In this document: positions 1-16,187 of the stretch, piece by piece | Layout: every line of letters starts with the position of its first letter | How positions within the stretch are numbered: position 1 is the first letter of the stretch | Source: a virus | DNA length: 54,953 nucleotides | Virus record (IMG/VR): IMGVR_UViG_3300024991_000003 | Strand: one strand, 5' to 3' | The notes under the pieces: model-generated | What the model was told of the DNA's origin: nothing | Database searches by the model: none | Seen by the model: the letters and a program-made list of their open reading frames with translations, nothing else | Translations under genes and position numbers: made by a program

Positions 1-127
1 AGATGCAGCGTTGTGATGCACCATTGAGATAGCTTGATGATCGCTAGATCTGTTGCATTTGGACGTGATTAGCCCTGATAACCATATAGGCTAATTTGAC
101 CACTGGCTTGTTTCACACCCCCCCCCC
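1..127. repeat. Terminal duplication, exact copy of 54827..54953 (circular closure/assembly overlap or short terminal repeat)
   Basis: Read directly: both ends run agatgcagcgttgtgatgcacc...ggcttgtttcaca + 10 C; 127/127 identical. Confidence 0.95.
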
Positions 128-128
128 C
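118..128. repeat. C11 homopolymer tract
   Basis: cacaCCCCCCCCCCCtag read directly; non-coding; abuts the AT-rich block. Confidence 0.95.
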
Positions 129-130
129 TA

Positions 131-676: not shown

Positions 677-1261
677 ATGTATACCGCACCTCGCCACCCC
701 GATTACATCGCCCGCAAGCGATTTGCGCTTGCCGTCGAGCGCGCCGCGCGCCTTGATGCGATCAATGGCCATCCCAATAATTGCGGCGCATATGCGGCCG
801 ATAGCGTTCTCTATTATAACTATCGAGCGGCATATGCCCGCGCTCTGGCATGGAAAGCACATTGCAACGCTGAGATCGTGGCACAAACCCACGCCGCTAT
901 CATTGACGCGCAAATTTACATCGCAACGCTGCAAGTGGGGCATATCTGGCGCGGCACGTTGCCTGAGGCCTACGCGCGCTATCCGCACTCCAATTGGTTG
1001 CGCATGATTTGGAAGGCCACGGCGCAATCATGTTTGAATGACGTAACGGTTTACGCTCGTTGGGACGCATCAAACGCCATTACCCGTATCGAGCGCCGCG
1101 CGCCTACTTGGGTTTTCCATGATGGCCGATGCATGCCCCATATCTTGGCACAAGCGCCTAAAACCCGCATCAATGCCCGCTTCATGGGCGGCCATGATCC
1201 TATCTATGATATGCGGGCCGATTGCTTGAATTGGGCACTTATCGCATCTTGGACAATTTAA
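677..1261 (+). CDS. hypothetical early protein (194 aa)
   Basis: Track ORF; ATG 12 nt after GGAGTAAC (665..672); first gene after the control region; no motif recognised. Confidence 0.7.
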   Translation: MYTAPRHPDYIARKRFALAVERAARLDAINGHPNNCGAYAADSVLYYNYRAAYARALAWKAHCNAEIVAQTHAAIIDAQIYIATLQVGHIWRGTLPEAYARYPHSNWLRMIWKATAQSCLNDVTVYARWDASNAITRIERRAPTWVFHDGRCMPHILAQAPKTRINARFMGGHDPIYDMRADCLNWALIASWTI

Positions 1262-1276
1262 CGGAGTAACCACACC

Positions 1277-1699
1277 ATGCTTAAAATGCCTTTCACACCG
1301 TCCGAGCGTAAGGCCATTGATAAGGCTTTTGACGCCATCACTCATCTTTGCAGCGAAACAAATTGGAATGATGCACCCACATGGCGCGCAGGTATTGCTG
1401 CACTCCGCAAGGGTGGTAAACCAGCTTGCAAATGGGAATTGCGCGCAAGAGCCATCAAACCATGGTATCATGGCGCAACCGATTGGCAGGCTAATAAACC
1501 GCTGCATGATTGCCCGATTGATTATGCGCCGTGGTGTGTCCAATTGTGGGCGCTTGGCGCAATCCAGATGCGCGACAATCCTAGCAAGCCTGAGATGCAA
1601 GAGGTGCTGCAATATGCCCCTCAGGCTATTGCAGCTTATGACAGGGCGCGTGATGCATGGGGTGATACAATCACGCGCCGTGCTCATAAAGGGGAGTAA
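1277..1699 (+). CDS. hypothetical early protein (140 aa)
   Basis: Track ORF; ATG 14 nt after GGAGTAAC (1263..1270); its GAG-TAA end forms the next cassette. Confidence 0.75.
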   Translation: MLKMPFTPSERKAIDKAFDAITHLCSETNWNDAPTWRAGIAALRKGGKPACKWELRARAIKPWYHGATDWQANKPLHDCPIDYAPWCVQLWALGAIQMRDNPSKPEMQEVLQYAPQAIAAYDRARDAWGDTITRRAHKGE

Positions 1700-1704
1700 C
1701 AGCT

Positions 1705-2043
1705 ATGACTGTAACCTGCAAAATCCAGCCCGATGGCAATTTGCTCATTACCGCAAACAACGCAATGCGCAGTGAGATTGCCGATGCATTGCACTCAGGC
1801 CGGTCAAACGCCGCCATATGGGCAGACCTGCTAGAGCCTTACGCATGCAATGGCTCATTTGCCGATTGTGAGGGTCTGATAGCGCTTTGGGACGGCCCTG
1901 CCATTTGTGAATGGGTGGACTATACTTTAGCCGGTGACCCCGTCCCTATGGGCCGCATTTGGGCATTTATGCGATATGAGGTGGAGTGCCCATTGCAGCA
2001 ATTGGCGCGCTATGGACGTTGCATCTTTAGGGGTGTGCCGTGA
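1705..2043 (+). CDS. hypothetical early protein (112 aa)
   Basis: Track ORF; ATG 12 nt after GGAGTAAC (1693..1700). Confidence 0.75.
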   Translation: MTVTCKIQPDGNLLITANNAMRSEIADALHSGRSNAAIWADLLEPYACNGSFADCEGLIALWDGPAICEWVDYTLAGDPVPMGRIWAFMRYEVECPLQQLARYGRCIFRGVP

Positions 2044-2252
2044 TCCACACATACACGCATATTTGCATTTATCGCGATGGATCGCATACTATCGAGCGAG
2101 GTAAACCCATCGATAGTATGCGATTGGTCATGATGGATCACCGCAACAAAATCGGCAATCGGGCTGACTTCTTGGAGCAAATCAACCGCTGGAATAGGCA
2201 AGCCATTATCGGCAATCTATCCGGCCTCACTCATATCTACGTAGCGGAGTAA
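2040..2252 (+). CDS. hypothetical early protein (70 aa)
   Basis: Track ORF; GTG start overlaps the upstream TGA (GTGA); ends ..VAE-TAA inside the next cassette. Confidence 0.6.
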   Translation: MIHTYTHICIYRDGSHTIERGKPIDSMRLVMMDHRNKIGNRADFLEQINRWNRQAIIGNLSGLTHIYVAE

Positions 2253-2257
2253 CAGCT

Positions 2258-2620
2258 ATGACACATTTTGTAATCCATTCCAGCGGCCCCAATGGCGTTA
2301 AATTTGACGTTAACGCCATTCCGTCCCAATCGCCTAGCGCGCTATGGGACGGTGTGAATGAATGTTTCATTCGTCCCTGCCCCGAAGATATGGAGGCATT
2401 CCTTCCTTATCGCTGGCGCAAAGCATGGGAGCGCGCGGGGCGACATTTTTGGTTTGATAAGCATGGCGGTATCGATGCCGATACGGGGCGATACACCGGC
2501 ACAATCCCGCATATCACTTTGCTGGATAGGCGCGGCAAATTTCTCACAACGCTTTATGCCATCCCTAGCGCTGACTTTAACCCGCGCGCTATGTCATTTG
2601 CCCATATCAAACCGGAGTAA
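2258..2620 (+). CDS. hypothetical early protein (120 aa)
   Basis: ATG 12 nt after GGAGTAAC (2246..2253); C-terminal LLDRRGKFL resembles LFDGRGKYL in 4655..5035. Confidence 0.75.
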   Translation: MTHFVIHSSGPNGVKFDVNAIPSQSPSALWDGVNECFIRPCPEDMEAFLPYRWRKAWERAGRHFWFDKHGGIDADTGRYTGTIPHITLLDRRGKFLTTLYAIPSADFNPRAMSFAHIKPE

Positions 2621-2627
2621 CCACAAC

Positions 2628-2870
2628 ATGCATGATCCTAAAGCCATTCGCCTATTTGTCCGAGCAAGCCGAGAAGCGCCGCGCAATCGATACCTGCAAG
2701 CATCGCTGGACAATCTGACAAAGCACTATCTCAGCGGTCAATTTTGCAAGCTAAAGGCGCTGCGATTGCTGGCAAACAACGCGCGGGATTATGATCGCAA
2801 TGTTACGCCCCCCATTGCGCGGGATTTTGCGGATTTGGTATTGACCGCATGGCAAAATGGGCGCATTTAG
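2628..2870 (+). CDS. hypothetical early protein (80 aa)
   Basis: Track ORF 2358..2870 trimmed to the ATG 14 nt after GGAGTAAC (2614..2621); the upstream part overlaps 2258..2620 out of frame. Confidence 0.65.
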   Translation: MHDPKAIRLFVRASREAPRNRYLQASLDNLTKHYLSGQFCKLKALRLLANNARDYDRNVTPPIARDFADLVLTAWQNGRI

Positions 2871-2926
2871 CAGGCTCAATGCAACGCAAACCGGAGGCCA
2901 CACGGCCCCAAACGGAGTAACCGACA

Positions 2927-3184
2927 ATGACAAGTGAACTTTTCAAGGCAATGATCAAAACGGAAGCGGCATTTAACCGCGACAATCTTTCGCTTGAAAA
3001 GATGCGAATTGCAGATGGTGCGCGTAAAACGTATTATGATGCGCTCGAAAAGGCGCGCACCAATTGGCGGTCCGTTGTTCACAAAAATAAAGAAAGTGCA
3101 GAGGAAAACGCAAATGATACCGACGGAACGCATGAAGATGCGCTTTACTGGTTTGAAATTGCGGAACGCTCACTTGATTTTTAA
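2927..3184 (+). CDS. hypothetical early protein (85 aa)
   Basis: Track ORF; ATG 13 nt after GGAGTAAC (2914..2921). Confidence 0.7.
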   Translation: MTSELFKAMIKTEAAFNRDNLSLEKMRIADGARKTYYDALEKARTNWRSVVHKNKESAEENANDTDGTHEDALYWFEIAERSLDF

Positions 3185-3203
3185 TAGAACGGAGTAACCC
3201 CAA

Positions 3204-3422
3204 ATGCGTATCAAACTCATTCTCACGCTTGCCGCGATGTTTTCCGCCATCGGCGCGTATGTGTGGCACATCGCCACGATCACCAATCCCGCCCCGCGCC
3301 ATGCAATCATTCAAATCCTGCACGGTAATATTTATGTGCAGGATCACGATTTAACGCTGAACGATTGCGCGCAGCTTGTCACCCATTACCCCCATGCATT
3401 TTGCGCCAGCCAGCCGGAGTAA
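3204..3422 (+). CDS. small membrane protein (72 aa)
   Basis: ATG 13 nt after GGAGTAAC (3191..3198); N-terminal hydrophobic helix ILTLAAMFSAIGAYVW. Confidence 0.7.
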   Translation: MRIKLILTLAAMFSAIGAYVWHIATITNPAPRHAIIQILHGNIYVQDHDLTLNDCAQLVTHYPHAFCASQPE

Positions 3423-3427
3423 CCGCC

Positions 3428-3709
3428 ATGCATAAAGCAACCGCAAACCGCATCCGCCAAGAGGCCATCGCGCAGCTTGCCGCGCCGGTATTGGACTATC
3501 AAATCCACCCCACAAATATCGAGTTTTTTGATGCGCGCACCGGCCACACCATTAAGCGCGGCAAGCTGCACAAGGGTGAGACGTGGCATTCCTGCTATAA
3601 CCGCCTCATGCGCCCCAAGCCGTGGATCAGCATCCGCAAGGTCGGCGGCATCTGGCATTGGCGCATTGGTCCGATTGGTGGATCGCTTTACATGGCAAAG
3701 GGGCGCTGA
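3428..3709 (+). CDS. hypothetical early protein (93 aa)
   Basis: Track ORF 3365..3709 trimmed to the ATG 12 nt after GGAGTAAC (3416..3423). Confidence 0.65.
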   Translation: MHKATANRIRQEAIAQLAAPVLDYQIHPTNIEFFDARTGHTIKRGKLHKGETWHSCYNRLMRPKPWISIRKVGGIWHWRIGPIGGSLYMAKGR

Positions 3710-3710
3710 G

Positions 3711-3929
3711 ATGGCACATATTACCCGCCCTGAACGATATGAGGCTGCTATTTGGCGCGGCAATGGCTCAGATAGGTCGCGATGGGCAGTAGTAGGCCCG
3801 ACAGGCTGCTATACGTTCCCGTCCGCATATGGGCGCAAAAATGCGGAAAGGCTTGCCGCGCGTATGACAAGGGAAGCGGAGGCATATCAAGAGCGTTTGC
3901 TTGATATTTATATTGGGCCGCGCGCTTAA
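3711..3929 (+). CDS. hypothetical early protein (72 aa)
   Basis: Track ORF 3477..3929 trimmed to the ATG after aGGGGcgctgag; N-terminus MAHITRPE resembles MSHITRPD of 4445..4648. Confidence 0.6.
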   Translation: MAHITRPERYEAAIWRGNGSDRSRWAVVGPTGCYTFPSAYGRKNAERLAARMTREAEAYQERLLDIYIGPRA

Positions 3930-3940
3930 CGCTATTCTAG

Positions 3941-3966
3941 AGACACCCTTGCATGCAAGGGTGTCT
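3941..3966 (+). promoter_or_regulatory. Intercistronic perfect 26-bp palindrome (RNA hairpin) with conserved flanks
   Basis: agacacccttgcatgcaagggtgtct equals its reverse complement; flanked by TTCTAG (3935..3940) and TATGAGTAA (3967..3975), as at 5036..5080. Confidence 0.6.
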
Positions 3967-3996
3967 TATGAGTAACGTAAACCGGAGTAACCTAAC

Positions 3997-4308
3997 ATGG
4001 CACAACATATCTATCAGGTTGAATTGACCGACACATTTGGCGGCGAAGCTAATTATTCATGGGTTAACCGCGCAACCGTCCGCATGCCCGAATTGACGCA
4101 TTACGGTTATACGGGCGCTCCCGATGGATCATATGCCCGCGCAAACCGCGCATATAACCGCGAATTGATGCGCCGCGCAAAGGCGGCAATGGGTCTGACT
4201 GGTGTGCGCGGTGTCACTACACAATGCGGCGATGGCTTGGAATTCCGCCCTTACGGTCTCTTGCAAGTCATGTTTGTGACTTATGAGGATATGGCGGAGA
4301 CGTTTTAA
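3997..4308 (+). CDS. hypothetical early protein (103 aa)
   Basis: Track ORF; ATG 13 nt after GGAGTAAC (3984..3991). Confidence 0.75.
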   Translation: MAQHIYQVELTDTFGGEANYSWVNRATVRMPELTHYGYTGAPDGSYARANRAYNRELMRRAKAAMGLTGVRGVTTQCGDGLEFRPYGLLQVMFVTYEDMAETF

Positions 4309-4439
4309 TGGATAATCCCCGCGCAATTCTCGCCGCTCTGGCGCTCTTGCTCTTGGCAATGGTGGCGCTGCAATACATGGGTGTGGCAAGCTGCAACGGC
4401 GATGCACAATGCATTCGCGCCACCAATCAACCGGAGTAA
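4308..4439 (+). CDS. small membrane protein (43 aa), absent from the ORF track
   Basis: Hand translation MDNPRAILAALALLLLAMVALQYMGVASCNGDAQCIRATNQPE; TAATG overlap with the upstream stop; ends GAG-TAA in cassette 4433..4440. Confidence 0.55.
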   Translation: MDNPRAILAALALLLLAMVALQYMGVASCNGDAQCIRATNQPE

Positions 4440-4444
4440 ACGAT

Positions 4445-4648
4445 ATGTCACATATTACCCGCCCTGATGGCTCCAAGGTACATTGCTACGCGCCGGGGGA
4501 TGGTCATTTGTCCTACGCAGTGGGATGTGAGGGCAAGGCGCGATCCTATGACATAACAGATGATGGTGCGCGCCAGCTTTGCCCCAATGGTTGGGAAGTT
4601 TACAAAGATGGCCCTTATCATCGCGCGCGCCCCATCAAACCGGAGTAA
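4445..4648 (+). CDS. hypothetical early protein (67 aa)
   Basis: Track ORF 4409..4648 trimmed to the ATG 12 nt after GGAGTAAA (4433..4440); ends ..IKPE-TAA. Confidence 0.65.
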   Translation: MSHITRPDGSKVHCYAPGDGHLSYAVGCEGKARSYDITDDGARQLCPNGWEVYKDGPYHRARPIKPE

Positions 4649-4654
4649 CCCATT

Positions 4655-5035
4655 ATGATTTACAATGATCGTTTTGATCCTCGCATTATGCCCCGCTCTG
4701 GCGCACCGCGCGTTGTCGGTATCAAGTCCGAATATACCGAAACGATTGATGGTTACATTTGCCGCCGCTCTCGCGTTGTATATGCTATTTGTGGGTGCGA
4801 CTATGGATGGTTGCATACTGCCGGCGGCGATATTCGGACGTGGGGTAGTCGGTCCGGTGCAATGGCGCATTTAAAACGCCATATTCTGCCATTCGATTAT
4901 GGTGCGCGCCGCGACTATCGCAAAATCGATTTGTTTGATGGGCGCGGTAAATACCTTTGCAGCACAACATGGGCGCGCGATTGCAATGAAGCGCTAGACC
5001 ATTGCCACGGCGCATATAAGGCGCGTTTTGCATAA
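4655..5035 (+). CDS. hypothetical early protein (126 aa)
   Basis: Track ORF; ATG 13 nt after GGAGTAAC (4642..4649). Confidence 0.75.
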   Translation: MIYNDRFDPRIMPRSGAPRVVGIKSEYTETIDGYICRRSRVVYAICGCDYGWLHTAGGDIRTWGSRSGAMAHLKRHILPFDYGARRDYRKIDLFDGRGKYLCSTTWARDCNEALDHCHGAYKARFA

Positions 5036-5042
5036 TTCTAGC

Positions 5043-5069
5043 AGCGCCCTTGCCATGCGTAGGGGCGCT
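5043..5069 (+). promoter_or_regulatory. Intercistronic hairpin with the same flanks as 3941..3966
   Basis: agcgccc-N13-gggcgct; preceded by TTCTAG (5036..5041) and followed by TATGAGTTA (5071..5079). Confidence 0.5.
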
Positions 5070-5093
5070 ATATGAGTTATGGGAGTAACGACA

Positions 5094-5450
5094 ATGACAA
5101 CGCCAAAGACACTTACGCCCGCGCAACAGGCTTTGCTTGCGCGGGATGATTTGCATCATAGCGCCGTGGCATTTGCCGCCGCTTGCCGCGCATCGCGGGA
5201 ATGGAGTGAGATGTTTTCCCTCGCACTGGCTCGATACGGCAACCATGGCGCGGCCATTAGCGGTTGCGGGCGCAATCACTTCCCCGATCACGTTAAGGAC
5301 ACCTTGCGCGCTCTGGCACGTCGATGTGCGGAGCGTTGCGATACGGCCCACGCTGCGCGCCCTCACGGTGTCCGAGCGGCCACAATCCGTAAGCTAGGGC
5401 AAACTGTGGCAACGCGCGATGGCGTAGGCTTCTATGGGCCGCAACCGTAG
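5094..5450 (+). CDS. hypothetical early protein (118 aa)
   Basis: Track ORF 5079..5450 trimmed to the ATG 12 nt after GGAGTAAC (5082..5089); last gene of the array. Confidence 0.65.
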   Translation: MTTPKTLTPAQQALLARDDLHHSAVAFAAACRASREWSEMFSLALARYGNHGAAISGCGRNHFPDHVKDTLRALARRCAERCDTAHAARPHGVRAATIRKLGQTVATRDGVGFYGPQP

Positions 5451-5488
5451 GCCCAAACCGCCACAAATCCCCCGCTCCAAAGTAATAG

Positions 5489-5525
5489 AGCGCCATGCGG
5501 GTTAGGCATGGCGCTTTTTTGTTTT
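5489..5525 (+). terminator. Rho-independent terminator closing the early array
   Basis: agcgccatgc-gggttag-gcatggcgct (10-bp stem) followed by tttttgtttt. Confidence 0.8.
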
Positions 5526-5532
5526 GGCCCCC

Positions 5533-5553
5533 AGCGCCCGCCATAGCGGCCCC
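5533..5553 (+). repeat. 21-bp direct repeat, copy 1
   Basis: agcgcccgccatagcggcccc is identical to 5612..5632; CCATAGCG occurs three times in 5541..5627. Confidence 0.9.
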
Positions 5554-5611
5554 ACGGAGAGCAAGTAATGCATAGGCACCCATAACCCCCGCGCAACGCC
5601 AGACGCGCCAT

Positions 5612-5632
5612 AGCGCCCGCCATAGCGGCCCC
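5612..5632 (+). repeat. 21-bp direct repeat, copy 2
   Basis: Identical to 5533..5553. Confidence 0.9.
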
Positions 5633-5784
5633 CTCAACCTACCCGGTCTGGGGATGGTCCGGCACGTCCGGCATGCCTCCCTACGCCCCTTGACGCGCAT
5701 CATGTAACGCGCATCAAACCATTGAAAACATTGGGTTTTGCCAGCGATCGCAGGGCCGCGGCCACCTGATGTAATCGATTGTTG

Positions 5785-5804
5785 TGAACCTGAATTCAGG
5801 TTCA
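5785..5804. promoter_or_regulatory. Perfect 20-bp palindrome (operator-like)
   Basis: tgaacctgaattcaggttca equals its own reverse complement; non-coding, ~100 bp upstream of the iterons. Confidence 0.5.
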
Positions 5805-5899
5805 TATTTGACGAAAAATCCAATAAAATCAGTCACTTAGCCCCAAACTGTAACGGTTACATCAGAAAAATCGTTTAAAATCAATGGGTTACGGTTGCA

Positions 5900-6037
5900 G
5901 GGGCGGGAGAACCCCGATCAGGGGCGGGAGAACCCCGATCAGGGGCGGGAGAACCCCGATCAGGGGCGGGAGAACCCCGATCAGGGGCGGGAGAACCCCG
6001 ATCAGGGGCGGGAGAACCCCGATCAGGGGCGGGAGAA
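5900..6037 (+). repeat. Tandem array of 6 perfect 21-bp units plus a 12-bp partial 7th (iteron-like)
   Basis: ggggcgggagaaccccgatca at 5900, 5921, 5942, 5963, 5984 and 6005, then ggggcgggagaa at 6026; one GATC per full unit. Confidence 0.95.
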
Positions 6038-6042
6038 TGGAG

Positions 6043-6071
6043 TTGACCTGACCAATTATAAGTTATATTAC
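6043..6071 (+). promoter_or_regulatory. Putative sigma70-type promoter with the ATAAGTTAT site in its spacer
   Basis: TTGACC (6043..6048)-N17-TATTAC (6066..6071); ATAAGTTAT at 6058..6066; AGGAGAG then ATG at 6098. Confidence 0.45.
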
Positions 6072-6097
6072 ACTATCAAATATAGGAGAGCCTTCAC

Positions 6098-6553
6098 ATG
6101 GAAACGACACCGTTTAATACGACCGACTTTATCAAGACCCACGACGATGCGATTGCATACATTAAGGACGCTGTTGCTAGTGGTGACGATACATTGATCG
6201 AAAATGCGATCAACACGTTGCGCGCCGCTGAGATTGTTGACCCAACCCCGCCTGCAACCCCGTCCATTGGCGTGGGTGATTGGGTGGTATTTAAGTCACC
6301 CATTACCGCGCACAAATATGATATGGATCACTTTCAGGCGTCGATGGTCATTCAAGTTCGTGGATCACATGATGTACTGATCACCCACAATTACAAGGCA
6401 TGGTGGGTATCGCCAAAAGATTGCTATCATGCGTCGGGTGAACAGCGCGCAAAAGATATTGCAATGCATCTCAATGCGCTCGTCAAACGGACCATCGCTG
6501 CAATGGACATGATGTACGATCACATCGATGCGTATTTTGGAGAAGCCCAGTGA
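6098..6553 (+). CDS. hypothetical protein (151 aa)
   Basis: Track ORF with AGGAGAG SD; first gene after the iterons; the AVASGDDT motif recurs in 7889..8674. Confidence 0.75.
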   Translation: METTPFNTTDFIKTHDDAIAYIKDAVASGDDTLIENAINTLRAAEIVDPTPPATPSIGVGDWVVFKSPITAHKYDMDHFQASMVIQVRGSHDVLITHNYKAWWVSPKDCYHASGEQRAKDIAMHLNALVKRTIAAMDMMYDHIDAYFGEAQ

Positions 6554-6954
6554 GCCGCATCAAGTGGCACATTCATGGTACACCGGGGCCATGGAAAACC
6601 ACCGAGGACAAAACCAGTCCCGGCTTTTTCATCACACGTGCAGCCAACGGCAAGCAAATCTGCGTCAGCCAACAGCGCAACAGCGAGATGGGCCGCAGTA
6701 CCGATCCATCCCGGCGCGCAACGCTCGTCAACACCCGCGCCATTGATTTGGTGCCCGAGATGGTTGAAATGCTGCGCAAGGCACAGAATGCGCTTTACCA
6801 TGCTGGTGACAGTGCCACATTTCAAGCGGTAACTGACTTGCTACTTGATGTGGATTACCCACCTCCTGCACCACCGGGCATTAAAACCTGCAAGCGGTGC
6901 CTTACCGCCCATGTGCGCCGCAAGTGCCCTATTTGTTTTGGAGGTGTGTCATGA
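6550..6954 (+). CDS. Ead/Ea22-like phage protein with a C-terminal zinc ribbon (134 aa)
   Basis: GTG overlaps the upstream TGA; TPGPW motif then RAIDLVPEMVEMLRKA, as in Ea22-like proteins; CKRC..CPIC at the C-terminus. Confidence 0.5.
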   Translation: MSRIKWHIHGTPGPWKTTEDKTSPGFFITRAANGKQICVSQQRNSEMGRSTDPSRRATLVNTRAIDLVPEMVEMLRKAQNALYHAGDSATFQAVTDLLLDVDYPPPAPPGIKTCKRCLTAHVRRKCPICFGGVS

Positions 6955-7340
6955 CTGAGGAACGCCGCTTTTTCATTTGGCATGACGGTGGGTACATTAC
7001 ACCACCCAACTCGGACATTGTTGGATTTATTCGAGACAAATCCGTCCAAATCAACAATGTCAAACCGCGCATCCGCTGTCACGGTAAATCTACTTTCATG
7101 GATATTACGGGTGAGTTTTGCCCGTTTGAAGCAGCTCTGACGCGCAAGGTTTACGGTTGTATCACTGAGGCAATGGCGCATCATATTCGTAATGAATATC
7201 TCAAACATAAGGCTCTACTGCGCAGCCCCAACCGCCGCATTATGGCAGTGATGGGACTTGCTGAGTACGAGAAAATTCATCGCCGCTTAATTACGGAATA
7301 CGAAACATGTTATCCGGCAGTAAAGGATTGGGTACAATGA
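6951..7340 (+). CDS. hypothetical protein (129 aa)
   Basis: Track ORF 6897..7340 trimmed to the ATG after GGAGGTG; ATGA overlap with the upstream stop. Confidence 0.65.
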   Translation: MTEERRFFIWHDGGYITPPNSDIVGFIRDKSVQINNVKPRIRCHGKSTFMDITGEFCPFEAALTRKVYGCITEAMAHHIRNEYLKHKALLRSPNRRIMAVMGLAEYEKIHRRLITEYETCYPAVKDWVQ

Positions 7341-7429
7341 CCCTCTCGCAGCACATCAGGCAACTTGCCGCACACGCCACGCCGGGACCATATATGATTT
7401 ACGGTGAGCCTGACGTTGGTTTACCGTAA
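7337..7429 (+). CDS. 30-codon N-terminal fragment of a second Ea22-like gene, ending at an in-frame TAA
   Basis: Hand translation MTLSQHIRQLAAHATPGPYMIYGEPDVGLP*; ATGA overlap with the upstream stop; same frame as 7451..7717. Confidence 0.4.
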   Translation: MTLSQHIRQLAAHATPGPYMIYGEPDVGLP

Positions 7430-7450
7430 AGTCTTTTCGCTGGAACACCG

Positions 7451-7717
7451 ATGGAAAGCGGTTTTGGCCCAATGGAGCCGTTGCAAGGTTGTGACCTGAC
7501 ACTGGTTTCAGCACTCTTGCAACATTTGCCAGCAATTGTGGACGCCCTTGAGCTGGCCGAGCGGGTAGGCGATCCGGCGATGGTGGAGATTGTAAGAGAA
7601 GGCATCAAACGTATAGCCACAATGTACGGCATAGAGGTTGTCAAACCAAACCAAATATATGGAGAAATGGCAGAAAAAGTCATCTCTGATCTGAAAGGCC
7701 CCGATAATGCAGGATGA
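7451..7717 (+). CDS. Ea22-like C-terminal part (88 aa)
   Basis: Track ORF in frame with 7337..7429 across one TAA (7427..7429); LVSALLQHLPAIVDALELAE fits the Ea22-like C-terminal pattern. Confidence 0.5.
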   Translation: MESGFGPMEPLQGCDLTLVSALLQHLPAIVDALELAERVGDPAMVEIVREGIKRIATMYGIEVVKPNQIYGEMAEKVISDLKGPDNAG

Positions 7718-7889
7718 TCATCGCGTATTCACTCGCAAAGATGGCAGCAGGTTCATGGTGTTTCATAATGCTAATCGCCGCGCTTGGTTTTGGCAGAATA
7801 TCGATGATGAATATGACAATTCACCGCTTGGCCCATACGACAATTATCACGATGCGTTTGATGACGCATTGGATATTCAGGAGGATTGA
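7707..7889 (+). CDS. hypothetical acidic protein (60 aa)
   Basis: Track ORF; ATG overlaps the end of the upstream gene. Confidence 0.6.
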   Translation: MQDDHRVFTRKDGSRFMVFHNANRRAWFWQNIDDEYDNSPLGPYDNYHDAFDDALDIQED

Positions 7890-8674
7890 TGATGACTGTA
7901 CCCAAACTGGACGATGCCAAATTTTACTTAGCAATGGGTAAAATTGCTAAATTGCGACTTGAGGAAGAACCTACGCACAGCAATCTCTTGCGCACTGAGG
8001 CAGCGTTTGCCCGGTACATGATTGCAGTAAGCGATGCGATTGAGAGCTTTACTCCGATGGACCAATTCGTCCTCAAGCCCGATCCGTTCGCTGCCATCAA
8101 AAACGCTGTAGCCAGCGGCGACGATACCGCGCTGGCATCTGCTGTGGGCAATTACATCAGGGAACACACGCCGGTCGGGCAGCAAGCGTTTGGTGGGATT
8201 TCACCCGCTGACAAATTGTGCAGCCAGTCGCTATACGGTGAATGCGATGTCCCGCACGATACCATGCAGCCGGGACTTGCACCGATACCAATCCCCGGTG
8301 ATCCTGCACCAACCCACAATAATCAAGGTTGGTATCTCGGGCCATTCACCGAGCGCCCTGCTGTGTTGAAAGACTTTGGGCCGCAAACTGCTGTTCAGAT
8401 CATTGGTGGATCACCCTTACGTACTGTCGTCATAGCGATCAGTAGTGTTTATTGGCCAGAAGTCAAACGCTGGCGCATTGCACCCTACAATGGTCATGTT
8501 TGGAACGAATGCGGCACCGATGGTTTGATCCCAAAATGTCTCAATGCCACAGATAATGTGATGGTGATGTCAAAACATGGTGGCAAAGCCAGAGATGAAG
8601 CCCACCATGTTGATTGGCGCAATGTCAGATGGTGGTTGCTATGCATGAGATTTGGGTGGGAAATACCTGCGTAG
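7889..8674 (+). CDS. hypothetical protein (261 aa)
   Basis: The track start at 7886 is TTG; ATG at 7889 follows AGGAGG and overlaps the upstream TGA. Confidence 0.75.
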   Translation: MMTVPKLDDAKFYLAMGKIAKLRLEEEPTHSNLLRTEAAFARYMIAVSDAIESFTPMDQFVLKPDPFAAIKNAVASGDDTALASAVGNYIREHTPVGQQAFGGISPADKLCSQSLYGECDVPHDTMQPGLAPIPIPGDPAPTHNNQGWYLGPFTERPAVLKDFGPQTAVQIIGGSPLRTVVIAISSVYWPEVKRWRIAPYNGHVWNECGTDGLIPKCLNATDNVMVMSKHGGKARDEAHHVDWRNVRWWLLCMRFGWEIPA

Positions 8675-8750
8675 CCCGTTGCGTTCATCGCAGAACTGCG
8701 GTATATCTTTTGCGACGCTACAAGGGCGGCAAGATTAAGAGGGTGAGACG

Positions 8751-9005
8751 ATGAGTGATACACGCCCCTATCCCGAATTGCTAACGGAAGCTGAGAGCCA
8801 AGAATTGTTGACCATGGCGGAAAACCTTTGGGCGTACCTGCAAAGTAACAATCTCGGTGGCTATTCCAGCGGCAACCGCCCATTCTATATCGAATGGAAA
8901 TTCAGGGAAATCGTCGAACAATTCGGGCGGCGTGACACAGGCCTGCAATGGTCCAAAAACCAACTGGATGCGCACCCCGACAAACCGGAGAAAAATGATG
9001 AATAA
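8751..9005 (+). CDS. hypothetical protein (84 aa)
   Basis: Track ORF; SD aagaGGGTGAgacg before the ATG. Confidence 0.7.
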   Translation: MSDTRPYPELLTEAESQELLTMAENLWAYLQSNNLGGYSSGNRPFYIEWKFREIVEQFGRRDTGLQWSKNQLDAHPDKPEKNDE

Positions 9006-9174
9006 ATTGCTGGATGGTTTGGCGCTTGTAATCATCATGTATATGCTGATCGGTATCTGGATCGAGACATACAACTATGATGCGCACAAGCACACCACTT
9101 TTGCCAATATTTTCGGGGCATCAGGACTGGTGGTCATCGTCATCTGGGCAATCCTGCGTTTTAAAGGGATGTGA
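8995..9174 (+). CDS. small two-helix membrane protein (59 aa)
   Basis: Track ORF 8857..9174 trimmed to the ATG after ccGGAGaaaa; hydrophobic LALVIIMYMLIGIWI and GLVVIVIWAIL. Confidence 0.6.
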   Translation: MMNKLLDGLALVIIMYMLIGIWIETYNYDAHKHTTFANIFGASGLVVIVIWAILRFKGM

Positions 9175-9175
9175 A

Positions 9176-9724
9176 ATGAGTACCGATATTGTCTTGCATA
9201 TTCCTGATACCACCCGTTTGCGTGATACCATTGCTGTGGTTGAGCATTATCTCCCCAGCAGAGATGGCACACCGCCGCGTTGTGTATTTGTTGGGCAATG
9301 TAAATTGCCGGATGTTTACACTCTGAGTTACGCCAAATCGAATAAACGATGGATGGAAATTTTCGGAGACGGTGGGGCAATCATTATCCGCATCGTCCAT
9401 ATCACCCGGAAAAAGATGGAAGCAGCCCGAATTGTTTCAATCCGCCGCGATCAACACACACCGCGCCCTGAGTGCAATCTCATGGGTATGATGATGTTTC
9501 GCAAAACACGTGCGATCCGCAATTGCACCGATGGTACGATCTACCGGACGCAAGCAGAGGCGGCGCGATCTCTCGGGATCACACAGGCCAGCGTATCGAT
9601 GCATCTCAGCGGTAGAGTAGCAAGCGTCGGAGGTGGGCACATACTGGAATATGTGCAGAATGAAATACCGAAAGAAAACAAGGCAAATATCCCTGCATTA
9701 CATAAAATGGCACAGGAGATTTGA
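9176..9724 (+). CDS. putative DNA-binding protein with a NUMOD-like C-terminal HTH (182 aa)
   Basis: Track ORF 9077..9724 trimmed to ATG 9176; C-terminal YRTQAEAARSLGITQASVSMHLSGR resembles homing-endonuclease-associated HTH modules. Confidence 0.45.
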   Translation: MSTDIVLHIPDTTRLRDTIAVVEHYLPSRDGTPPRCVFVGQCKLPDVYTLSYAKSNKRWMEIFGDGGAIIIRIVHITRKKMEAARIVSIRRDQHTPRPECNLMGMMMFRKTRAIRNCTDGTIYRTQAEAARSLGITQASVSMHLSGRVASVGGGHILEYVQNEIPKENKANIPALHKMAQEI

Positions 9725-9727
9725 GCT

Positions 9728-9919
9728 ATGCCGGTATCGGTCTGGTGTGAATTTGTCTGTGCCAAATGTGCCAAAACCGGACATACAGGAAGACATGTCA
9801 TCGGCGGACGCATCCCTCTCATTGCGATGAGAGATCAAGCTGAACGAAATGGTTGGCATTTTACGCGAGATGATGCTTATTGTTCGCGTAAGTGTTTTGA
9901 CGCAGTGCAGGAGACTTGA
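9728..9919 (+). CDS. small Cys-rich (zinc-binding?) protein (63 aa)
   Basis: Track ORF; CEFVCAKC...CSRKC; preceded by junction CAGGAGATTTGAGCTATG. Confidence 0.6.
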   Translation: MPVSVWCEFVCAKCAKTGHTGRHVIGGRIPLIAMRDQAERNGWHFTRDDAYCSRKCFDAVQET

Positions 9920-9922
9920 GCT

Positions 9923-10252
9923 ATGGTAAATCCTGATAAGCACGCCATGGAAACTGCTAATAAACTGGCACAACGTATGGGCGGGCGTTTTGTGCCAAAT
10001 GATCCGATCACGATGCTTTTGGAGGAAATACCGAAGCTGATGGAACGTGCGGACATGGCGGAAAACATTGTTGACCGCATCAATGCACGAAACCAAATCG
10101 ACGCATTGCTTTGGGAAAACCTCTATTTTATCATGGATGCGCTGCGGAAGAGTGCATCTCTCAAGGTGAAAGCTGGTCAATATATTGCCGTAATCACGCA
10201 ATCTGAAAAAGAAGCGCTAGAAAGGATGAGAGATGCAACTCACCACACGTAA
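9923..10252 (+). CDS. hypothetical protein (109 aa)
   Basis: Track ORF; preceded by junction CAGGAGACTTGAGCTATG, 17/18 identical to the one at 9713..9730. Confidence 0.7.
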   Translation: MVNPDKHAMETANKLAQRMGGRFVPNDPITMLLEEIPKLMERADMAENIVDRINARNQIDALLWENLYFIMDALRKSASLKVKAGQYIAVITQSEKEALERMRDATHHT

Positions 10253-10499
10253 AAGAGCGCAATTGCAGCGACTGATTGACAGGGCTGTAAAATTAAATAA
10301 GCAGTATCATATTGCACTGCATGCGCTTGATAAGTGGTGCGAGGAACAGTATGGAGTTGCCCCGTCCGATGTTGATGCGGATTTCATCATTGATGCTATT
10401 TATGGCGGGTGCGGCGGTGGGTGCAATATTACTGCTGATCATTTTGACCGAGAGATGACCGAGAGTATGGAGCGAAACCCAAATGCAACTATGCTGTAA
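10233..10499 (+). CDS. hypothetical protein (88 aa)
   Basis: Track ORF; AAGGA SD; overlaps the upstream gene by 20 nt. Confidence 0.6.
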   Translation: MQLTTRKRAQLQRLIDRAVKLNKQYHIALHALDKWCEEQYGVAPSDVDADFIIDAIYGGCGGGCNITADHFDREMTESMERNPNATML

Positions 10500-10752
10500 T
10501 GCCTGCGGTAATTGGTTCAGGTCCGCACTGGCAGAAGCCAAACACCGCCACAATTTTCCCATCATGTGCAGCCGCAATAAGCGGTTTGAGAAATGGATGA
10601 AGGAGGTGCGAGGTGCAAAAATCACGCAAGCTGATAAGGATGCTGCCCATGCACTCGCTGATGACACCGATGCGCTGCATCTCGCTATAGCCCGTATCAG
10701 AGGTGAACAAACTGGGAAGGAGGTGCGAGGTGAAATACCAACAGAGACGTAA
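10483..10752 (+). CDS. hypothetical protein with an N-terminal CxxC..HxH motif (89 aa)
   Basis: Track ORF; CCNAC...HRH; KEVRG occurs twice, encoded by the repeated gaaggaggtgcgaggtg. Confidence 0.55.
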   Translation: MQLCCNACGNWFRSALAEAKHRHNFPIMCSRNKRFEKWMKEVRGAKITQADKDAAHALADDTDALHLAIARIRGEQTGKEVRGEIPTET

Positions 10753-10897
10753 CGGCTGTTGTGAATTTTATGATTGCCCCGGTCCTGCACAGGATCATTG
10801 TCCTGTAACAGATGGTTGCCACTGCCCGATTAATCATCTATTGTGGCGGCACAAAGAGGAGCAAGTCAATGATGAAATACCGGATCGAGATCGTTGA
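10730..10897 (+). CDS. small Cys-rich protein (55 aa)
   Basis: Track ORF 10703..10897; a GTG at 10730 follows GGAGGTGCGAG; CCEFYDCPG..HCPVTDGCHCP. Confidence 0.4.
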   Translation: MKYQQRRNGCCEFYDCPGPAQDHCPVTDGCHCPINHLLWRHKEEQVNDEIPDRDR

Positions 10898-11063
10898 GAT
10901 CGTCAGCAAGCAACGGCATCGCTTTATTGTCGATGCCGTTGATGCGAATGATGCTGCGGCTCAAGCGCATCAATTGCGGGTCAATTACCCACCATCATGG
11001 CTGATTGCTGGACAACTTGGCGAGGAAAACCCTGAGGAATTCCTCGCCAATGGTGGTTGGTGA
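10869..11063 (+). CDS. hypothetical protein (64 aa)
   Basis: Track ORF 10812..11063 trimmed to the ATG after GAGGAG. Confidence 0.6.
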   Translation: MMKYRIEIVEIVSKQRHRFIVDAVDANDAAAQAHQLRVNYPPSWLIAGQLGEENPEEFLANGGW

Positions 11064-11405
11064 TTAACCGGCCCAGCAAATTCCGCCGTTGTCACCGAGC
11101 GCGCCAATTTTGGCAGCAACGGCAGATGCGGTAAGAAAATAATTCCCACTCTGCAATTCCAGTTTCACCCAACCCTTGCCGAGCATTTTAAAAATCTTAC
11201 CAATATCGTTGACACTAAGAGATGTATATTCCACCGTCCCACGATAAATGGAACAATCGTCCCAAAGTACCCCGTCAAATGACCGCTTGGGTTTCCATAC
11301 ACCACCGCTGAGAGCAGTAAGCTGAAATTCTACCGCATCAATTCCGAGACACGGTAGCGATTTACCATCCCAATTCACAGGATGAATGGCTGTCAGATTA
11401 ACCAT
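11064..11405 (-). CDS. hypothetical protein downstream of the tail fibre (possible fibre accessory/assembly protein, 113 aa)
   Basis: Track ORF; its ATG overlaps the fibre stop (TGATG); function inferred from position only. Confidence 0.55.
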   Translation of the reverse strand: MVNLTAIHPVNWDGKSLPCLGIDAVEFQLTALSGGVWKPKRSFDGVLWDDCSIYRGTVEYTSLSVNDIGKIFKMLGKGWVKLELQSGNYFLTASAVAAKIGALGDNGGICWAG

Positions 11406-14400
11406 CAGCCAAACTCCGACCGCCAGCGGGCATAGGTTTCAAATACCAACTGGTTGCCTGTATCCGTCCAATGGATTTTATCGCTATAAAGCAGGCCCTG
11501 CGCATTAAAGTTGGTCTGGTCGAGGCGCAGCAGTGGGACGCCCAGCGATTTACAGACCGAGATCGCCACCCCAACGTAGGCATCAAATGCCGTTGCGGTA
11601 TAAACGCTTGACGCAAAGGTGGCATAATCCGGGCGCGACGGCGTAATCATTTCCACGCGCGAAGGATTGGAAGCTAGCAGCGCATTAAGCACCCGCGTAA
11701 GGTTTGTGCGATATGCAGCCAGACCGAGCGCCGTGGTGGCCTGCCCATGATAGAGCGCATCATTGGTCATCAGCGCCACCGTGTATTCGGGCGCGGCATT
11801 GCTGCCCTGACCGCTGATCGCCTGAGCCTGCGCGATGATAGATGTCAGCGCCGCTGTAGTGAAATCCTTGCACTGCCCCCCGCCATGCGCCTGCCGCATG
11901 TGCAGGATCGGCCCGAGCGTACCGCTGGCCGCGAGGACGGCAGGGCGGCGGATCAGACCGGTAAGCTCAACCGGGCCACCGCTGGCGCGAATGGCATAGG
12001 TGCCGCTGGCCGTCTGGCCGGTCGCGGAAGGACCGGTGTAGCTGTCCAAAACGGTCGTACCCGCCGCGCTGACCGTCTTATAATCTGTCCCGTTATACGA
12101 GAAGATCAACGACCCCGCGCCGGACTGTTGCGTATAAAACGCATCGACGAACGCATAGGCCCCGGTGAATGTCACCGATGCGCCATCAGCCAGAATGGTC
12201 GATTGACCAAGCGGGCCGTTGGTGCCCGCCGTGGTCGTTCCCGCGATGGTCAGGCCATAGAAAGCGGCGGTATCCGCACCCGTCCCGGTCACATCGCGAA
12301 TGACCGAGTTGGCTACCCCTTGCCATGGTGCAGCATCGGGGGCTTCCTCGGCATTGAGCCATGCCGAAAGCAATTGCCACCAGTGCTTTTGCATGCTGGT
12401 GGCATAGAAGTGCGCTGAAAGGCTGTCACCGATCAGTACCTTGGGTGAATTGCTCGACGCGCATTGCGCCATGGCCGAACGCACTTTAAGACGTAATGCG
12501 CCATCGGTAGGGCGGCGTGGGATCGGGTAATAGACACCATTGACGTAAATTTTACCTTCACCCCACAGACCCTCACCGTTGTATGGCAGACTGGTAACAG
12601 CAAAGGTTCCCATCGGCACGTGCGGTGTGGGATGTGCGGCACGTGCTGCAACAAATGCTGCGGTGCTGTCAGATGTGCCGGTATTATCCGCACCGGACAG
12701 CAAGCCGATACCTTCGGTAGCCATAGCTCGTGCAGCAGATTGTACCACATCAAGTGTGGCCTCTGCGCCAGATTGGCGCGGGCTGATACCAATGGCCACC
12801 TGCCAACCGATGCCGGTCTTGCTATTGGCAACGGCGGTTGAAGCGGTATTGGTGCCGGGGATGCCAGCAACATAGCGCAGTGATGATCCAGTCAATGTAG
12901 CAATGGATGTACCGGCATTTGCACCATAAATACCGATATACTGCCCAGCCGTAACAGGAATGAAGCAGGTAAAAGTGTTAACGCCGTTGACCAAGGTGAT
13001 GGGTGTTGCAGAAACAAGCGTAAACTGGTTCGATCCATTTTTGGTGGCAACAATGATTTTGCCGGGACCGGCAGCATTAACATGGCACGATACACTTACC
13101 AGACGTCCACTTTTAGCAACCGCTTGTTCGCTAAAAGTGGTATATCCACCTACAATGTTGTAGGTGAGTGCTGTTGCCGGATAAAGACCGCCGACATTGG
13201 TAGAACCGGTAATCTGATCCTGTAATTTGCCATCGGCTGCAATCGCGCGCGCAATCTCACCCGACTGTACCGTATAGGACAATGCGGGCAAGATGTTGGC
13301 CGATGTTGCCTTGGCGGTGTTTGTTGAGGGTAGGCCACTGGTGTAAGTCAGTGTGTTGCCGGTTGACCCTGTGGTGATGGAGAATGAACCAGCACTGTAA
13401 CACCCAACCCAATATCCAACGCCAACATAGGGGTTCCAATTGGTGAACGTATTGGCTCCAGAAGCCAGAGTTACGTCCTTGCTCTGTTGGATCGTGACTG
13501 TACCGTCACCATTATCAGCACAAACAACCAACGTGGCCGCAACTGATCCGGCTGCCGGATTGTAAACCGAGATACCTTTAAGTTGCCCCTCACTTGCAAC
13601 TTGAGAAGTTGCAAAGATCGTCAGGCCGTTGCCGCTGCCCGTAGTGCCCGCGACGGCAGGATAGGTGCCGCTGGTGGTGAGCGTACCATTAACTGCGGTA
13701 TTCACCAGCGCAATCGCAGTGGTATTGGTCGAAACACTGGACAGCAGCGCATCGATGGTGTTGCTATTGCCAGTGATCTTATCGATAACCTTACCGGAAA
13801 TCGACCACCCAAGCTGTGCTTGATTGGTGCTGGTTTTTGCAGTACCACCGCTGGTCGCAGAGCCGGGAAGGCCAACGGTAAACCACGCTGCGCCACTGAT
13901 CCCATTGTTCACACCGAGAATGCTTGTTGCAGCGTAAGCGGCAAGGAATTGACCTGCGCTGATACGCGGGTTCCAAGTGGTGATAGTATTGGCACCGGTG
14001 GTTAATGTTACCGCCTTGGTGAGCGGATTGCCTGCACTATCGTTTACCACCCGAACGGTGCCATCACCATTGATGGCCACAATCGCCAGCGTTGCAGCCC
14101 CGCCAGCCGTAGCATAGACCGATGCACCGACCAAAATGCCAGAGATCGCAAAAGGCGTCTGGGAAAATACGGTGACATTATTGATGAAAGCACCATTGCC
14201 GACCGTTGCCGGATAAATGCCACCCGTCCCGGCCAAACCATCCTTGGTAATGGTCAACTGTGCCAGACCAAACGGGGACGTGGCAAGTGCTGCGGCATTG
14301 TTGCCCCACGCGCCAAGGCTCAGCCCATCGCTGGTGGGTGCGTAAAAATTGCGACCAACCGGAATTGTATTAACCGTGGCGGTTGGAATAGTCGCGCCAG

Positions 14401-15482: not shown

Positions 15483-15685
15483 CACAACGCCTAATCGATA
15501 TTCGCGAGGAAGCACTCAGCCACGTCCAAGTCGCGGTTGCTGAAATTCTCGCCGCAAACGGTAAGATGCAGAGTGCGCTCAAACCGCTGTTTGAAGAAAT
15601 GGACGGTATTGAGGCACCAAACAGTTTCAAGGCGGCAATCATTCGCGATATTTTCGCCAAACTTAATGAGGGGGTTGGAGCGTGA
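15479..15685 (+). CDS. hypothetical protein (68 aa)
   Basis: Track ORF; ATGA overlap with the upstream stop. Confidence 0.65.
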
Positions 15686-15897
15686 GTAAATTTATCCCAC
15701 TCCATATCATAGCCGAAGCTAAATACAAACTTGGCGACCTGTTGCAAAAGAAATCCGGTGCTGCTTGGCACGGCACTGTTGTTGGATTTTACAGCACTGC
15801 GTTGACGCGCATTGGCTATTGCATCGAAAGCAGCAGGGAACCGGGCAGCGTCCAGCTTTACCCTGAAAGTGCGCTTGAACCTTGGGACGGTAACTGA
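15682..15897 (+). CDS. hypothetical protein (71 aa)
   Basis: Track ORF; GTG after GGAG; GTGA overlap with the upstream stop. Confidence 0.6.
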
Positions 15898-16187
15898 TGC
15901 GCCAGCAACTCAGCAAGAGGCAGCATGAATGTCTCCAATTCGCCAGCGAAGGATATAACGCGACCGAGATCGGCAAGCTGTTGGGCATTTCCCCACGCTC
16001 TGTTGAGGTTCACCGGGCATTTGCCAAGAAAAAACTCGGTGCAGCTACGATCAGCCATGCCATGATGATTTTCAATTATTCACATGGTTGGCCGCAGTAT
16101 GGTGAGGACATTGCCGGAATTGTCACCGAAGAACAATGGCGCGCGTTGCAGGTTGCAATGGCAGCAAGACACGGATTGGAGTTGTAA
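15897..16187 (+). CDS. LuxR/GerE-type HTH transcriptional regulator (96 aa)
   Basis: LSKRQHECLQFASEGYNATEIGKLLGISPRSVEVHRAFAKKKLG matches the LuxR C-terminal HTH pattern. Confidence 0.8.
   Translation: MRQQLSKRQHECLQFASEGYNATEIGKLLGISPRSVEVHRAFAKKKLGAATISHAMMIFNYSHGWPQYGEDIAGIVTEEQWRALQVAMAARHGLEL

Follow-up and report, generated by a model that had tools for sequence, protein, structure and literature searches.

A tandem array of direct-repeat sites abutting an early promoter in a ~55-kb tailed-phage genome, read as candidate binding sites for a regulator of the second early operon

The window analysed here is the whole 54,953-nucleotide stretch of the IMG/VR virus record IMGVR_UViG_3300024991_000003, and the element in question is a tandem repeat array at 5898–6037. 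As a first-pass annotation had placed it, the array stands in front of the second early operon, in non-coding DNA between the terminator at 5487–5527 and the Shine–Dalgarno sequence and ATG of the gene at 6098. It is built of a 12–14-bp motif whose last copy lies five bases before a promoter-like element; both the motif and this register are kept in a relative, L012, the sequence between the motifs is not, and assemblies otherwise identical to the window differ in the number of copies. The reading that we favour, and to which we give about an even chance, is that the array comprises tandem sites for a regulator of the second early operon, which from its position would probably be an activator.

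The array and the adjoining promoter

The genes at 677–11063 are all on the plus strand and nearly all ORFans, and are divided into two operons by a 647-bp non-coding region (5451–6097) that contains the array. Tandem Repeats Finder reported the array with a period of 21, 6.7 copies, 100% matches and a score of 280, no other perfect repeat of the window coming near it in strength. The 21-mer GGGGCGGGAGAACCCCGATCA occurs exactly at 5900, 5921, 5942, 5963, 5984 and 6005, is absent elsewhere on both strands even with three mismatches allowed, and gave no match in 100 shuffles; the first 12 bases of the unit recur a seventh time at 6026–6037. The six perfect 21-bp units and the 12-bp seventh of the first-pass annotation are thereby found again in the letters of the window, but the count itself is unreliable, given a k=127 assembly and the existence of two-site contigs (see below). 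The array is better described as seven 12-mers (14-mers including the preceding CA) with six identical 9-bp spacers, in the order (CAGGGGCGGGAGAA–CCCCGAT) × 6–CAGGGGCGGGAGAA–TGGAG–TTGACC–17 bp–TATTAC–Shine–Dalgarno–ATG. The features that carry the argument are as follows.

5898–6037, plus strand: the array; seven identical sites (CA)GGGGCGGGAGAA from 5900, 5921, 5942, 5963, 5984, 6005 and 6026, and six identical 9-bp spacers CCCCGATCA
6043–6071, plus strand: promoter-like element; TTGACC (6043–6048), 17-bp spacer and TATTAC (6066–6071), with the same TTGACC-17-TATTAC in L012
6084–6553, plus strand: Shine–Dalgarno sequence AGGAGA (6084–6089) and the first gene of the second early operon (6098–6553; 151 aa, ORFan)

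Within the 55-kb window the 12-mer is confined to the array, and in the 18-kb locus of L012 none was found beyond the paired sites described below, the chance expectation being ~0.004 per locus. A GGGG...CCCC pattern and one GATC are present in each full unit, as had been noticed at first; GATC, however, occurs at the genome expectation (360 sites; observed/expected, 1.01), and the CCCC half and the GATC fall in the spacer, which differs in L012. On the top strand of the array, G4-C-G3 recurs with the 21-nt period, with loop lengths of 1, 13 and 1, and may have G-quadruplex potential. Literature searches returned nothing specific to the array.

The distance from the array to TTGACC is five bases (TGGAG), one fewer than originally counted. 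The promoter spacer carries the palindrome TATAAGTTATA (6057–6067). Palindromes of the form TATAA(G/C)TTATA have 12 matches against 1.2 expected, and occur only at the left-end early promoters (140–461, within the region 131–490) and in this spacer, which marks the promoter after the array as regulated and early-class; the palindrome probably serves as the operator for a repressor common to the early genes. A related ATATAAG motif is found at both places in L012 (the left-end early promoters and the promoter after the repeats), and early promoters of the TTGACC type recur in the more distant complete relatives L037 and L039. In the left-end region of the window, a 51-nt segment with two of the palindromes is duplicated exactly (~340–390 and 437–487).

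The second early operon spans 6098 to ~11063. A search of 5.8 billion proteins with the product of its first gene (6098–6553) found no homologue beyond the protein itself, and neither Pfam nor PHROG gave a match. AlphaFold models of the two ORFans flanking the array were of too low confidence to be used (pLDDT, 42 and 46).

Conservation in a relative and copy number among assemblies

A search with the large terminase (TerL) gave a large family of genomes of ~50–57 kb, most of whose contigs stop in repeat-rich DNA beside the small terminase gene (terS). Only L012 (TerL 84% identical) crosses the first early operon and enters the intergenic region corresponding to that of the array, where the sites are arranged as CAGGGGCGGAAGAA–CCCAACCCT–CAGGGGCGGAAGAA–TTTTC–TTGACC–17 bp–TATTAC. 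Here, CAGGGGCGGAAGAA occurs twice, 23 bp apart, with the proximal copy 5 bp before TTGACC as in the window, so that a comparison of unit number among relatives, which the first-pass annotation had proposed, gives two sites in L012 versus seven in the window. Between the two phages, the motif GGGGCGGRAGAA agrees at 11 of 12 positions. The spacer reads CCCCGATCA in the window and CCCAACCCTCA in L012, with 9 versus 11 bp between the 12-mers, and that of L012 has neither GATC nor the CCCC dyad. What is kept in both phages is the 12–14-mer, its 5-bp offset to the −35 hexamer and both promoter hexamers, and not the sequence or length of the spacer; the functional unit would therefore be the 12–14-mer. 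Two properties by which an operator or upstream activating sequence can be recognised were accordingly found, namely a fixed promoter position kept in a relative (in both phages the 12-mer ends 5 bp before TTGACC-17-TATTAC) and a motif kept while the sequence between the sites drifts. In the complete genomes of L037 and L039, the TTGACC promoters are preceded by other repeats.

The gene downstream of the promoter is unrelated in the window and L012, and the proteins common to their first operons are only those at 2628–2870 and 3428–3709 (~51% identity), neither with a family assignment. Since the downstream gene differs and the motif is kept, the conserved element belongs to the promoter and not to a particular gene. 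The two regions also have a flanking architecture in common, consisting of terminator, GC-rich repeats, IHF-like box, palindrome, direct repeats and promoter. Read in the direction of the early genes, the order in L012 is terminator, 39-bp × 3.1 repeat, GAAAAACCCAACAAAATCAG, palindrome ATGCAATCGATTGCAT twice, direct repeats, promoter, Shine–Dalgarno sequence and ATG, and that in the window is terminator, GC-rich 21-nt repeats, GAAAAATCCAATAAAATCAG twice, palindrome TGTAACGGTTACA, array, promoter, Shine–Dalgarno sequence and ATG.

Eight other contigs of the same phage from independent samples, found via the 6098–6553 protein, are 100% identical to the window over 1–13.8 kb. Six of the eight start inside the array, keeping 55, 55, 30, 30, 8 and 3 nt of it, which is the signature of assemblers (k=55, k=31) broken by a tandem repeat longer than k. 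The remaining two, both MEGAHIT contigs (L001 and L002), cross the array with only 35 bp, that is, with two 12-mers and one spacer (1.67 units). We think that these short two-site alleles are real, because L001 and L002 correctly resolve the 51-nt repeats at 340–490. In L001, the 79 bp separating the exact 21-nt repeats at 5533 and 5612 are deleted as well, with 100% identity over the rest of the contig; the deletion is a second repeat-mediated length polymorphism in the intergenic region of the array.

As for the window itself, nucleotides 1–127 are identical to nucleotides 54827–54953, from which it follows that the record is a circularly closed k=127 assembly of a complete genome of ~54,826 bp (~54.8 kb), and that features close to either end are contiguous with one another. 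If the true array is longer, 140 bp would be the shortest in-phase array of at least 127 bp that a k=127 graph can emit, and "six plus a partial" may accordingly be a lower bound, with the perfection of the internal copies partly due to graph collapse. In otherwise identical genomes (100% over up to 13.8 kb) there are 2, at least 3 or at least 7 sites, and the array locus thus behaves as a minisatellite. Variable arrays in near-identical phages had been named beforehand as a result that would speak against a role for the array; this result is obtained in part, since the copy number does vary in this manner, which argues against the need for a fixed number of copies but does not contradict a function of the motif. 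A practical warning is that, in phage genomes assembled from metagenomes, the assembler's k determines how many copies such an array shows, and that contigs break at these arrays.

Regulator sites weighed against other readings

Under the favoured reading, the functional element would be the 12–14-bp motif (CA)GGGGCGGRAGAA, serving as a direct-repeat site for a sequence-specific DNA-binding protein. If transcription starts ~7 nt past the −10 hexamer, the proximal site would be located at about −52 to −41 of the promoter, and the further sites, each 21 bp or two helical turns away, would all lie on one face of the helix. The ancestral state is presumed to be two sites, as in L012 and in the two assemblies of the window's phage; slipped-strand or unequal pairing between the two sites would duplicate the unit of 12-mer and 9-bp spacer, and slippage between two 12-mers would leave n full units and a terminal 12-mer, exactly the structure seen. 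The protein would bind head to tail and cooperatively, and would most likely activate transcription by recruiting RNA polymerase, activation being favoured because the sites abut the core promoter without overlapping it and are on one helical face. The second operon would thereby get its own (delayed-early) control, superposed on the TATAAGTTATA operator common to the left-end early promoters, that palindrome being taken as a separate repressor operator, and the IHF-like sites and palindromes just upstream would form part of the same conserved control region. Extra copies would add binding sites and shift the upstream elements by whole helical turns, so that the copy number may tune promoter strength.

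Of the roles first suggested for the array (replication origin, centromere-like site and cooperative regulator array), the last fits best, supported by the 12–14-mer pair that L012 keeps 5 bp from the same promoter without keeping the spacer. Tandem promoter-proximal activator sites are exemplified by the contiguous 20-bp OmpR sites F1–F3/C1–C3, which end next to the −35 hexamer, by the pho boxes of PhoB and by the direct repeats of lambda CII at the −35 hexamer. Like these, the array consists of direct, non-palindromic repeats in helical phase with the proximal site abutting the −35 hexamer, the motif and register are kept while spacers drift, and head-to-tail cooperative binding would be expected. 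It differs from them in having seven identical copies versus two to four degenerate ones, in its unrelated motif and in a copy number that varies between otherwise identical genomes. A striking but purely formal analogy is offered by the SV40 21-bp repeats, which lie between the origin and the early promoter and contain GC boxes (GGGGCGG) bound by Sp1; in both cases the 21-bp repeats contain GGGGCGG(R)AG and immediately precede the early promoter of a virus, with a region of origin type alongside, but the virus and the factor are eukaryotic and no homology is implied.

As to the binding protein, three stand-alone helix-turn-helix (HTH) proteins of the phage are candidates: a GerE/LuxR-type protein (15897–16187; E, 4e-12), an HTH_17/AlpA-like protein (19898–20071) encoded just upstream of the primase-helicase, and an HTH protein at 9176–9724. 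A two-unit exact-pattern scan of viral and genome collections gave no match; the matches to the 12-mer pair were all unrelated, being repeats of GC-rich bacteria, for the most part in coding sequence, and a single viral contig; and a metagenome scan with a loose pattern (12-mer, 3–7 nt, TTGAC) gave only chance matches among the matches listed. As these exact-match scans brought up no bacterial regulon with paired sites, a phage-encoded binder is mildly favoured.

Several points weigh against the assignment to a regulator. L012 is the sole informative relative, the contigs of the others ending before the region or being without the motif, and exact-match scans found no other promoter with the motif and thus no corroborating regulon. 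A generic sigma-70 scan did not call TTGACC-17-TATTAC, because the −10 hexamer ends in C and is without the usual final T. The two-site contigs come from MEGAHIT and may represent assembly collapse, the binder is represented by candidates only (phage HTH proteins or a host factor), and seven 21-bp sites beside an AT-rich, IHF-like tract would also suit an iteron origin, although both roles can coexist.

That the array is an iteron-type replication origin is therefore a possibility to be taken seriously, though on balance we consider it unlikely. The 12-mers would then be iterons for a phage initiator, either an unrecognised protein or an origin-binding part of the RepB-primase/PriCT_2/DUF5906 primase-helicase (17598–19901), with melting in the adjacent AT-rich, IHF-bent tract; the adjoining promoter may be under the control of the same protein or may activate the origin by transcription. 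Theta-replicon iterons include the seven 22-bp iterons of the R6K gamma origin, flanked by IHF sites and an AT-rich segment, those of pSC101 and of P1 oriR/incA, and the 3.5 perfect 20–22-bp iterons of IncQ oriV, and the array shares with such systems a period of ~21–22 bp, head-to-tail orientation, a last copy that is incomplete, an adjacent AT-rich stretch carrying IHF-like sites and an adjoining promoter. Seven head-to-tail 12-mers with a 21-bp period have the form expected of an origin (three or more direct repeats of 17–22 bp in a ~21–22-bp phase), and the AT-rich tract at 5780–5899 (GC content, 32–40%), which directly adjoins them, holds the only two IHF-consensus matches of the genome. 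The array also lies in one of only two large non-coding regions of the genome, the other adjoining terS; the phage carries a replication module of its own, to which a P4-alpha-like primase-helicase belongs; and the cumulative GC skew has a weak local minimum at 6–7 kb, but the skew follows gene orientation. On the other hand, no Rep-like match to Pfam or PHROG was obtained among the scanned early-region open reading frames (ORFs) of both operons, which agrees with the earlier remark that no Rep, ParB or similar gene is recognisable nearby, and no DnaA box (≤1 mismatch) is present in 5451–6097. Further, the adjacent gene is an ORFan that is not kept in the relative keeping the motif, and L012 has only two sites, in an exact register with the −35 hexamer that is a need of a promoter element and not of an origin, so that the conserved feature itself counts against this reading. 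Two-site alleles apparently exist in the same phage as well, and, unlike theta replicons, this phage is apparently virulent with its own polymerase and primase-helicase. As candidates for an origin or pac site, the imperfect 24–25-bp arrays beside terS are better placed, their position being kept across relatives. Should the array be an origin nonetheless, it would be the first one mapped for this group of phages.

The possibility of a neutral, slippage-driven minisatellite, in which at most two promoter-proximal sites matter and the extra copies are recent, non-functional and come and go, is quite unlikely in our estimate, and would concern the extra copies only, being compatible with regulator binding at the core sites. 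All copies are identical, contigs with 100% identity over 6–13.8 kb of flank differ only in copy number and in the one nearby 79-bp deletion, and L012 manages with two sites; the intergenic region of L012 moreover holds another perfect tandem repeat (39 bp × 3.1), which marks the region as prone to duplication. However, each added site reproduces a conserved motif intact, faces the same side of the helix and would be bound if the protein exists, and the long allele is assembled or implied in at least three independent samples (the window, L003 and L004). The same variability could instead be put to use in a phage contingency locus, with rapid expansion and contraction in 21-bp steps, by which the helical phase is kept, giving clonal subpopulations with 2 to at least 7 sites that differ in the level or timing of the operon and so hedge bets; we regard this as a long shot. 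Known contingency loci include the TAAA tract of Neisseria nadA, between IHF/NadR sites and the promoter, and the 7-bp repeats of Haemophilus hmw. As in these, a tandem repeat upstream of the −35 hexamer and between an IHF-like site and the promoter varies in copy number among clonal genomes, but the unit of the array is a whole predicted binding site of 21 bp, or two helical turns, and not a short spacer-changing tract, and it is borne by a phage.

The centromere-like site among the first suggestions, that is, a centromere or operator array of a partition system of the R1 parC–ParR or pSM19035 omega-heptad type in a phage of plasmid-prophage lifestyle, now appears very improbable. Contiguous direct repeats beside a promoter are typical of type Ib and II centromeres that double as operators, and the geometry of the array would fit: in R1 parC and the omega heptads, too, contiguous short direct repeats lie at a promoter and a small protein binds them cooperatively. 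The repeats of the array are longer, however (12–14 bp in a 21-bp period), and are on one side of the promoter only; no ParA, ParM, ParB, ParR, integrase or telomerase-like gene was found among the genes scanned, and the first genes of the operon are ORFans that are not conserved along with the motif. In the fetched stretches of Rigallicvirus phages (see below), no partition or integrase gene is annotated save an 'excisionase and transcriptional regulator' next to the primase.

The least probable of the accounts has the array transcribed, to give a leader or decoy RNA with structure or else a peptide of repeats, namely (RGGRTPI)n encoded by the ORF at 5884–6051 or (QGRENPD)n by that at 5895–6197. 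Since 21 is divisible by 3, reading frames are open across the array, and a weak promoter-like match at 5801–5829 could read through it, but that match is within chance (1 found versus 1.7 expected). The predicted RNA folds no better than shuffled sequences (z = −0.27) and has no Rfam match, and the ORFs are without a Shine–Dalgarno sequence, one of them starting with TTG and running out of frame into the next gene; the 11-bp spacer of L012, versus 9 bp in the window, would in addition break any reading frame across the repeats. A Dam/SeqA or P1-pac-like cluster of GATC sites was considered and rejected, GATC being at expectation and absent from the L012 spacer and the host being probably an alphaproteobacterium; alphaproteobacteria are not known to have Dam and SeqA.

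If the array does bind a regulator, (CA)GGGGCGGRAGAA and the promoter would provide a defined cis-element for dissecting early-gene timing in a large and mostly uncultivated group of phages, namely Rigallicvirus relatives with ~55-kb genomes and probably alphaproteobacterial hosts. The array would also illustrate how a two-site operator can become a perfect minisatellite of variable copy number, a modest twist on known tandem binding-site arrays.

Neighbouring elements, genome and host

Upstream of the array, the intergenic region contains the following features.

5487–5527, plus strand: strong intrinsic terminator ending the first early operon, with a 12-bp stem and T-run (terminator scan, inverted repeat); a homologous terminator is at the same place in the relatives L012 and L015
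5533–5632, plus strand: GC-rich segment with the exact 21-nt direct repeat AGCGCCCGCCATAGCGGCCCC at 5533–5553 and 5612–5632
5785–5804, no strand: perfect 20-bp palindrome TGAACCTGAATTCAGGTTCA
5813–5839, plus strand: conserved box GAAAAATCCAATAAAATCAG with the IHF-consensus core AATCAGTCACTTA (5827–5839); 18 of 20 positions identical in L012, at the same relative position
5849–5861, no strand: palindrome TGTAAC-G-GTTACA (TGTAACGGTTACA), belonging to the inverted repeat 5766–5777/5854–5865
5865–5891, plus strand: second copy of the box (84%) with the second IHF-consensus core AATCAATGGGTTA (5879–5891), within the AT-rich tract

In L012, the place equivalent to 5533–5632 is occupied by the perfect 39-bp × 3.1 GC-rich tandem repeat, which has a similar GGGCCATAGC core, and that equivalent to the palindrome at 5849–5861 by the two copies of ATGCAATCGATTGCAT. 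The two matches to the IHF consensus WATCARNNNNTTR in the whole window are those at 5827–5839 and 5879–5891. The 20-nt box GAAAAAYCCAAYAAAATCAG (5813–5832, and also 5865–5883), conserved between the window and L012, fits an extended IHF-type site composed of an A-tract, 8 nt and WATCAR-N4-TTR. The same box is found in non-coding DNA of six unrelated IMG/VR contigs (L187–L192), in one of them directly upstream of a TTGACT promoter, and in 48 bacterial or archaeal genome contigs (L193–L240), about one-third of which are labelled alphaproteobacterial, several of those sites lying beside the ends of tRNA genes. On inspection of the sequence, the alphaproteobacterial LexA box GAAC-N7-GAAC was not present.

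The other large non-coding region, between terS and the left-end early promoters, contains an imperfect array at 54671–54856 with an 81-bp unit × 2.4 (equivalent to ~25 bp × 5) and a GCGATCAC core. Arrays of other units occupy the same position in L013 (1–207; 24 bp × 8.6, also with GCGATCAC) and L014 (1–136; 25 bp × 5.4, perfect), and the contigs of relatives usually stop at them. Because their position is kept across relatives while their sequence diverges, these terS-side arrays appear to evolve in a more iteron- or pac-like manner than the 21-bp array, and are putative pac sites or origins.

The window represents a tailed phage with recognisable genes for the small terminase (terS, 53347–53949), TerL, a DUF4055 portal and a tape measure, and with a replication module encoding a family-A DNA polymerase, a Gp2.5-like single-stranded DNA-binding protein, a DUF2800 nuclease, a superfamily 2 (SF2) helicase and the RepB-primase/PriCT_2/DUF5906 primase-helicase. 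No DNA-level relative of the window was found in the GenBank phage set, nor any near relative among GenBank phages (DNA and protein) and IMG/VR with the flanking genes and primase as queries. Among cultured phages, the Rhizobium phages RHph_X2_24 and P106B (Rigallicvirus) come closest, with polymerases 51–54% identical and with similar genome size and layout; both are without a comparable non-coding array. A 1135-aa protein encoded on the minus strand (11405–14812), between the early region and the replication module and remote from the tail genes, shares 79% identity with the protein that ends the tail module of a Novosphingobium sp. 1748 prophage (L186) and 78–80% with the protein after the baseplate genes in the Mu-like myophage contigs L184 and L185. 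It probably represents a tail fibre or receptor-binding protein that has spread by horizontal exchange. It was tried as a synteny anchor for the array and set aside, its homologues being tail-fibre genes of unrelated phages and of the Novosphingobium prophage. Because the closest cultured phages infect rhizobia and this tail-fibre-like protein resembles that of the Novosphingobium prophage, a host among the alphaproteobacteria, perhaps a sphingomonad, is probable.

Identity to the window is 100%, over up to 13.8 kb, in contigs that come from at least eight samples and four sources (among them ENA, JGI and Logan); such clonality is unusual for an environmental phage, and the samples may be related or the spread very recent. 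A 71-aa ORF on the plus strand (15682–15897) matches the R67-type (type II, plasmid trimethoprim-resistance) dihydrofolate reductase family PF06442 (E = 1.7e-20), which is unusual for a phage. Between terS and the early promoters, a non-coding homopolymer run is present as C10 in the window (120–129) and as G14 in L015 (reverse complement of 3833–4609).

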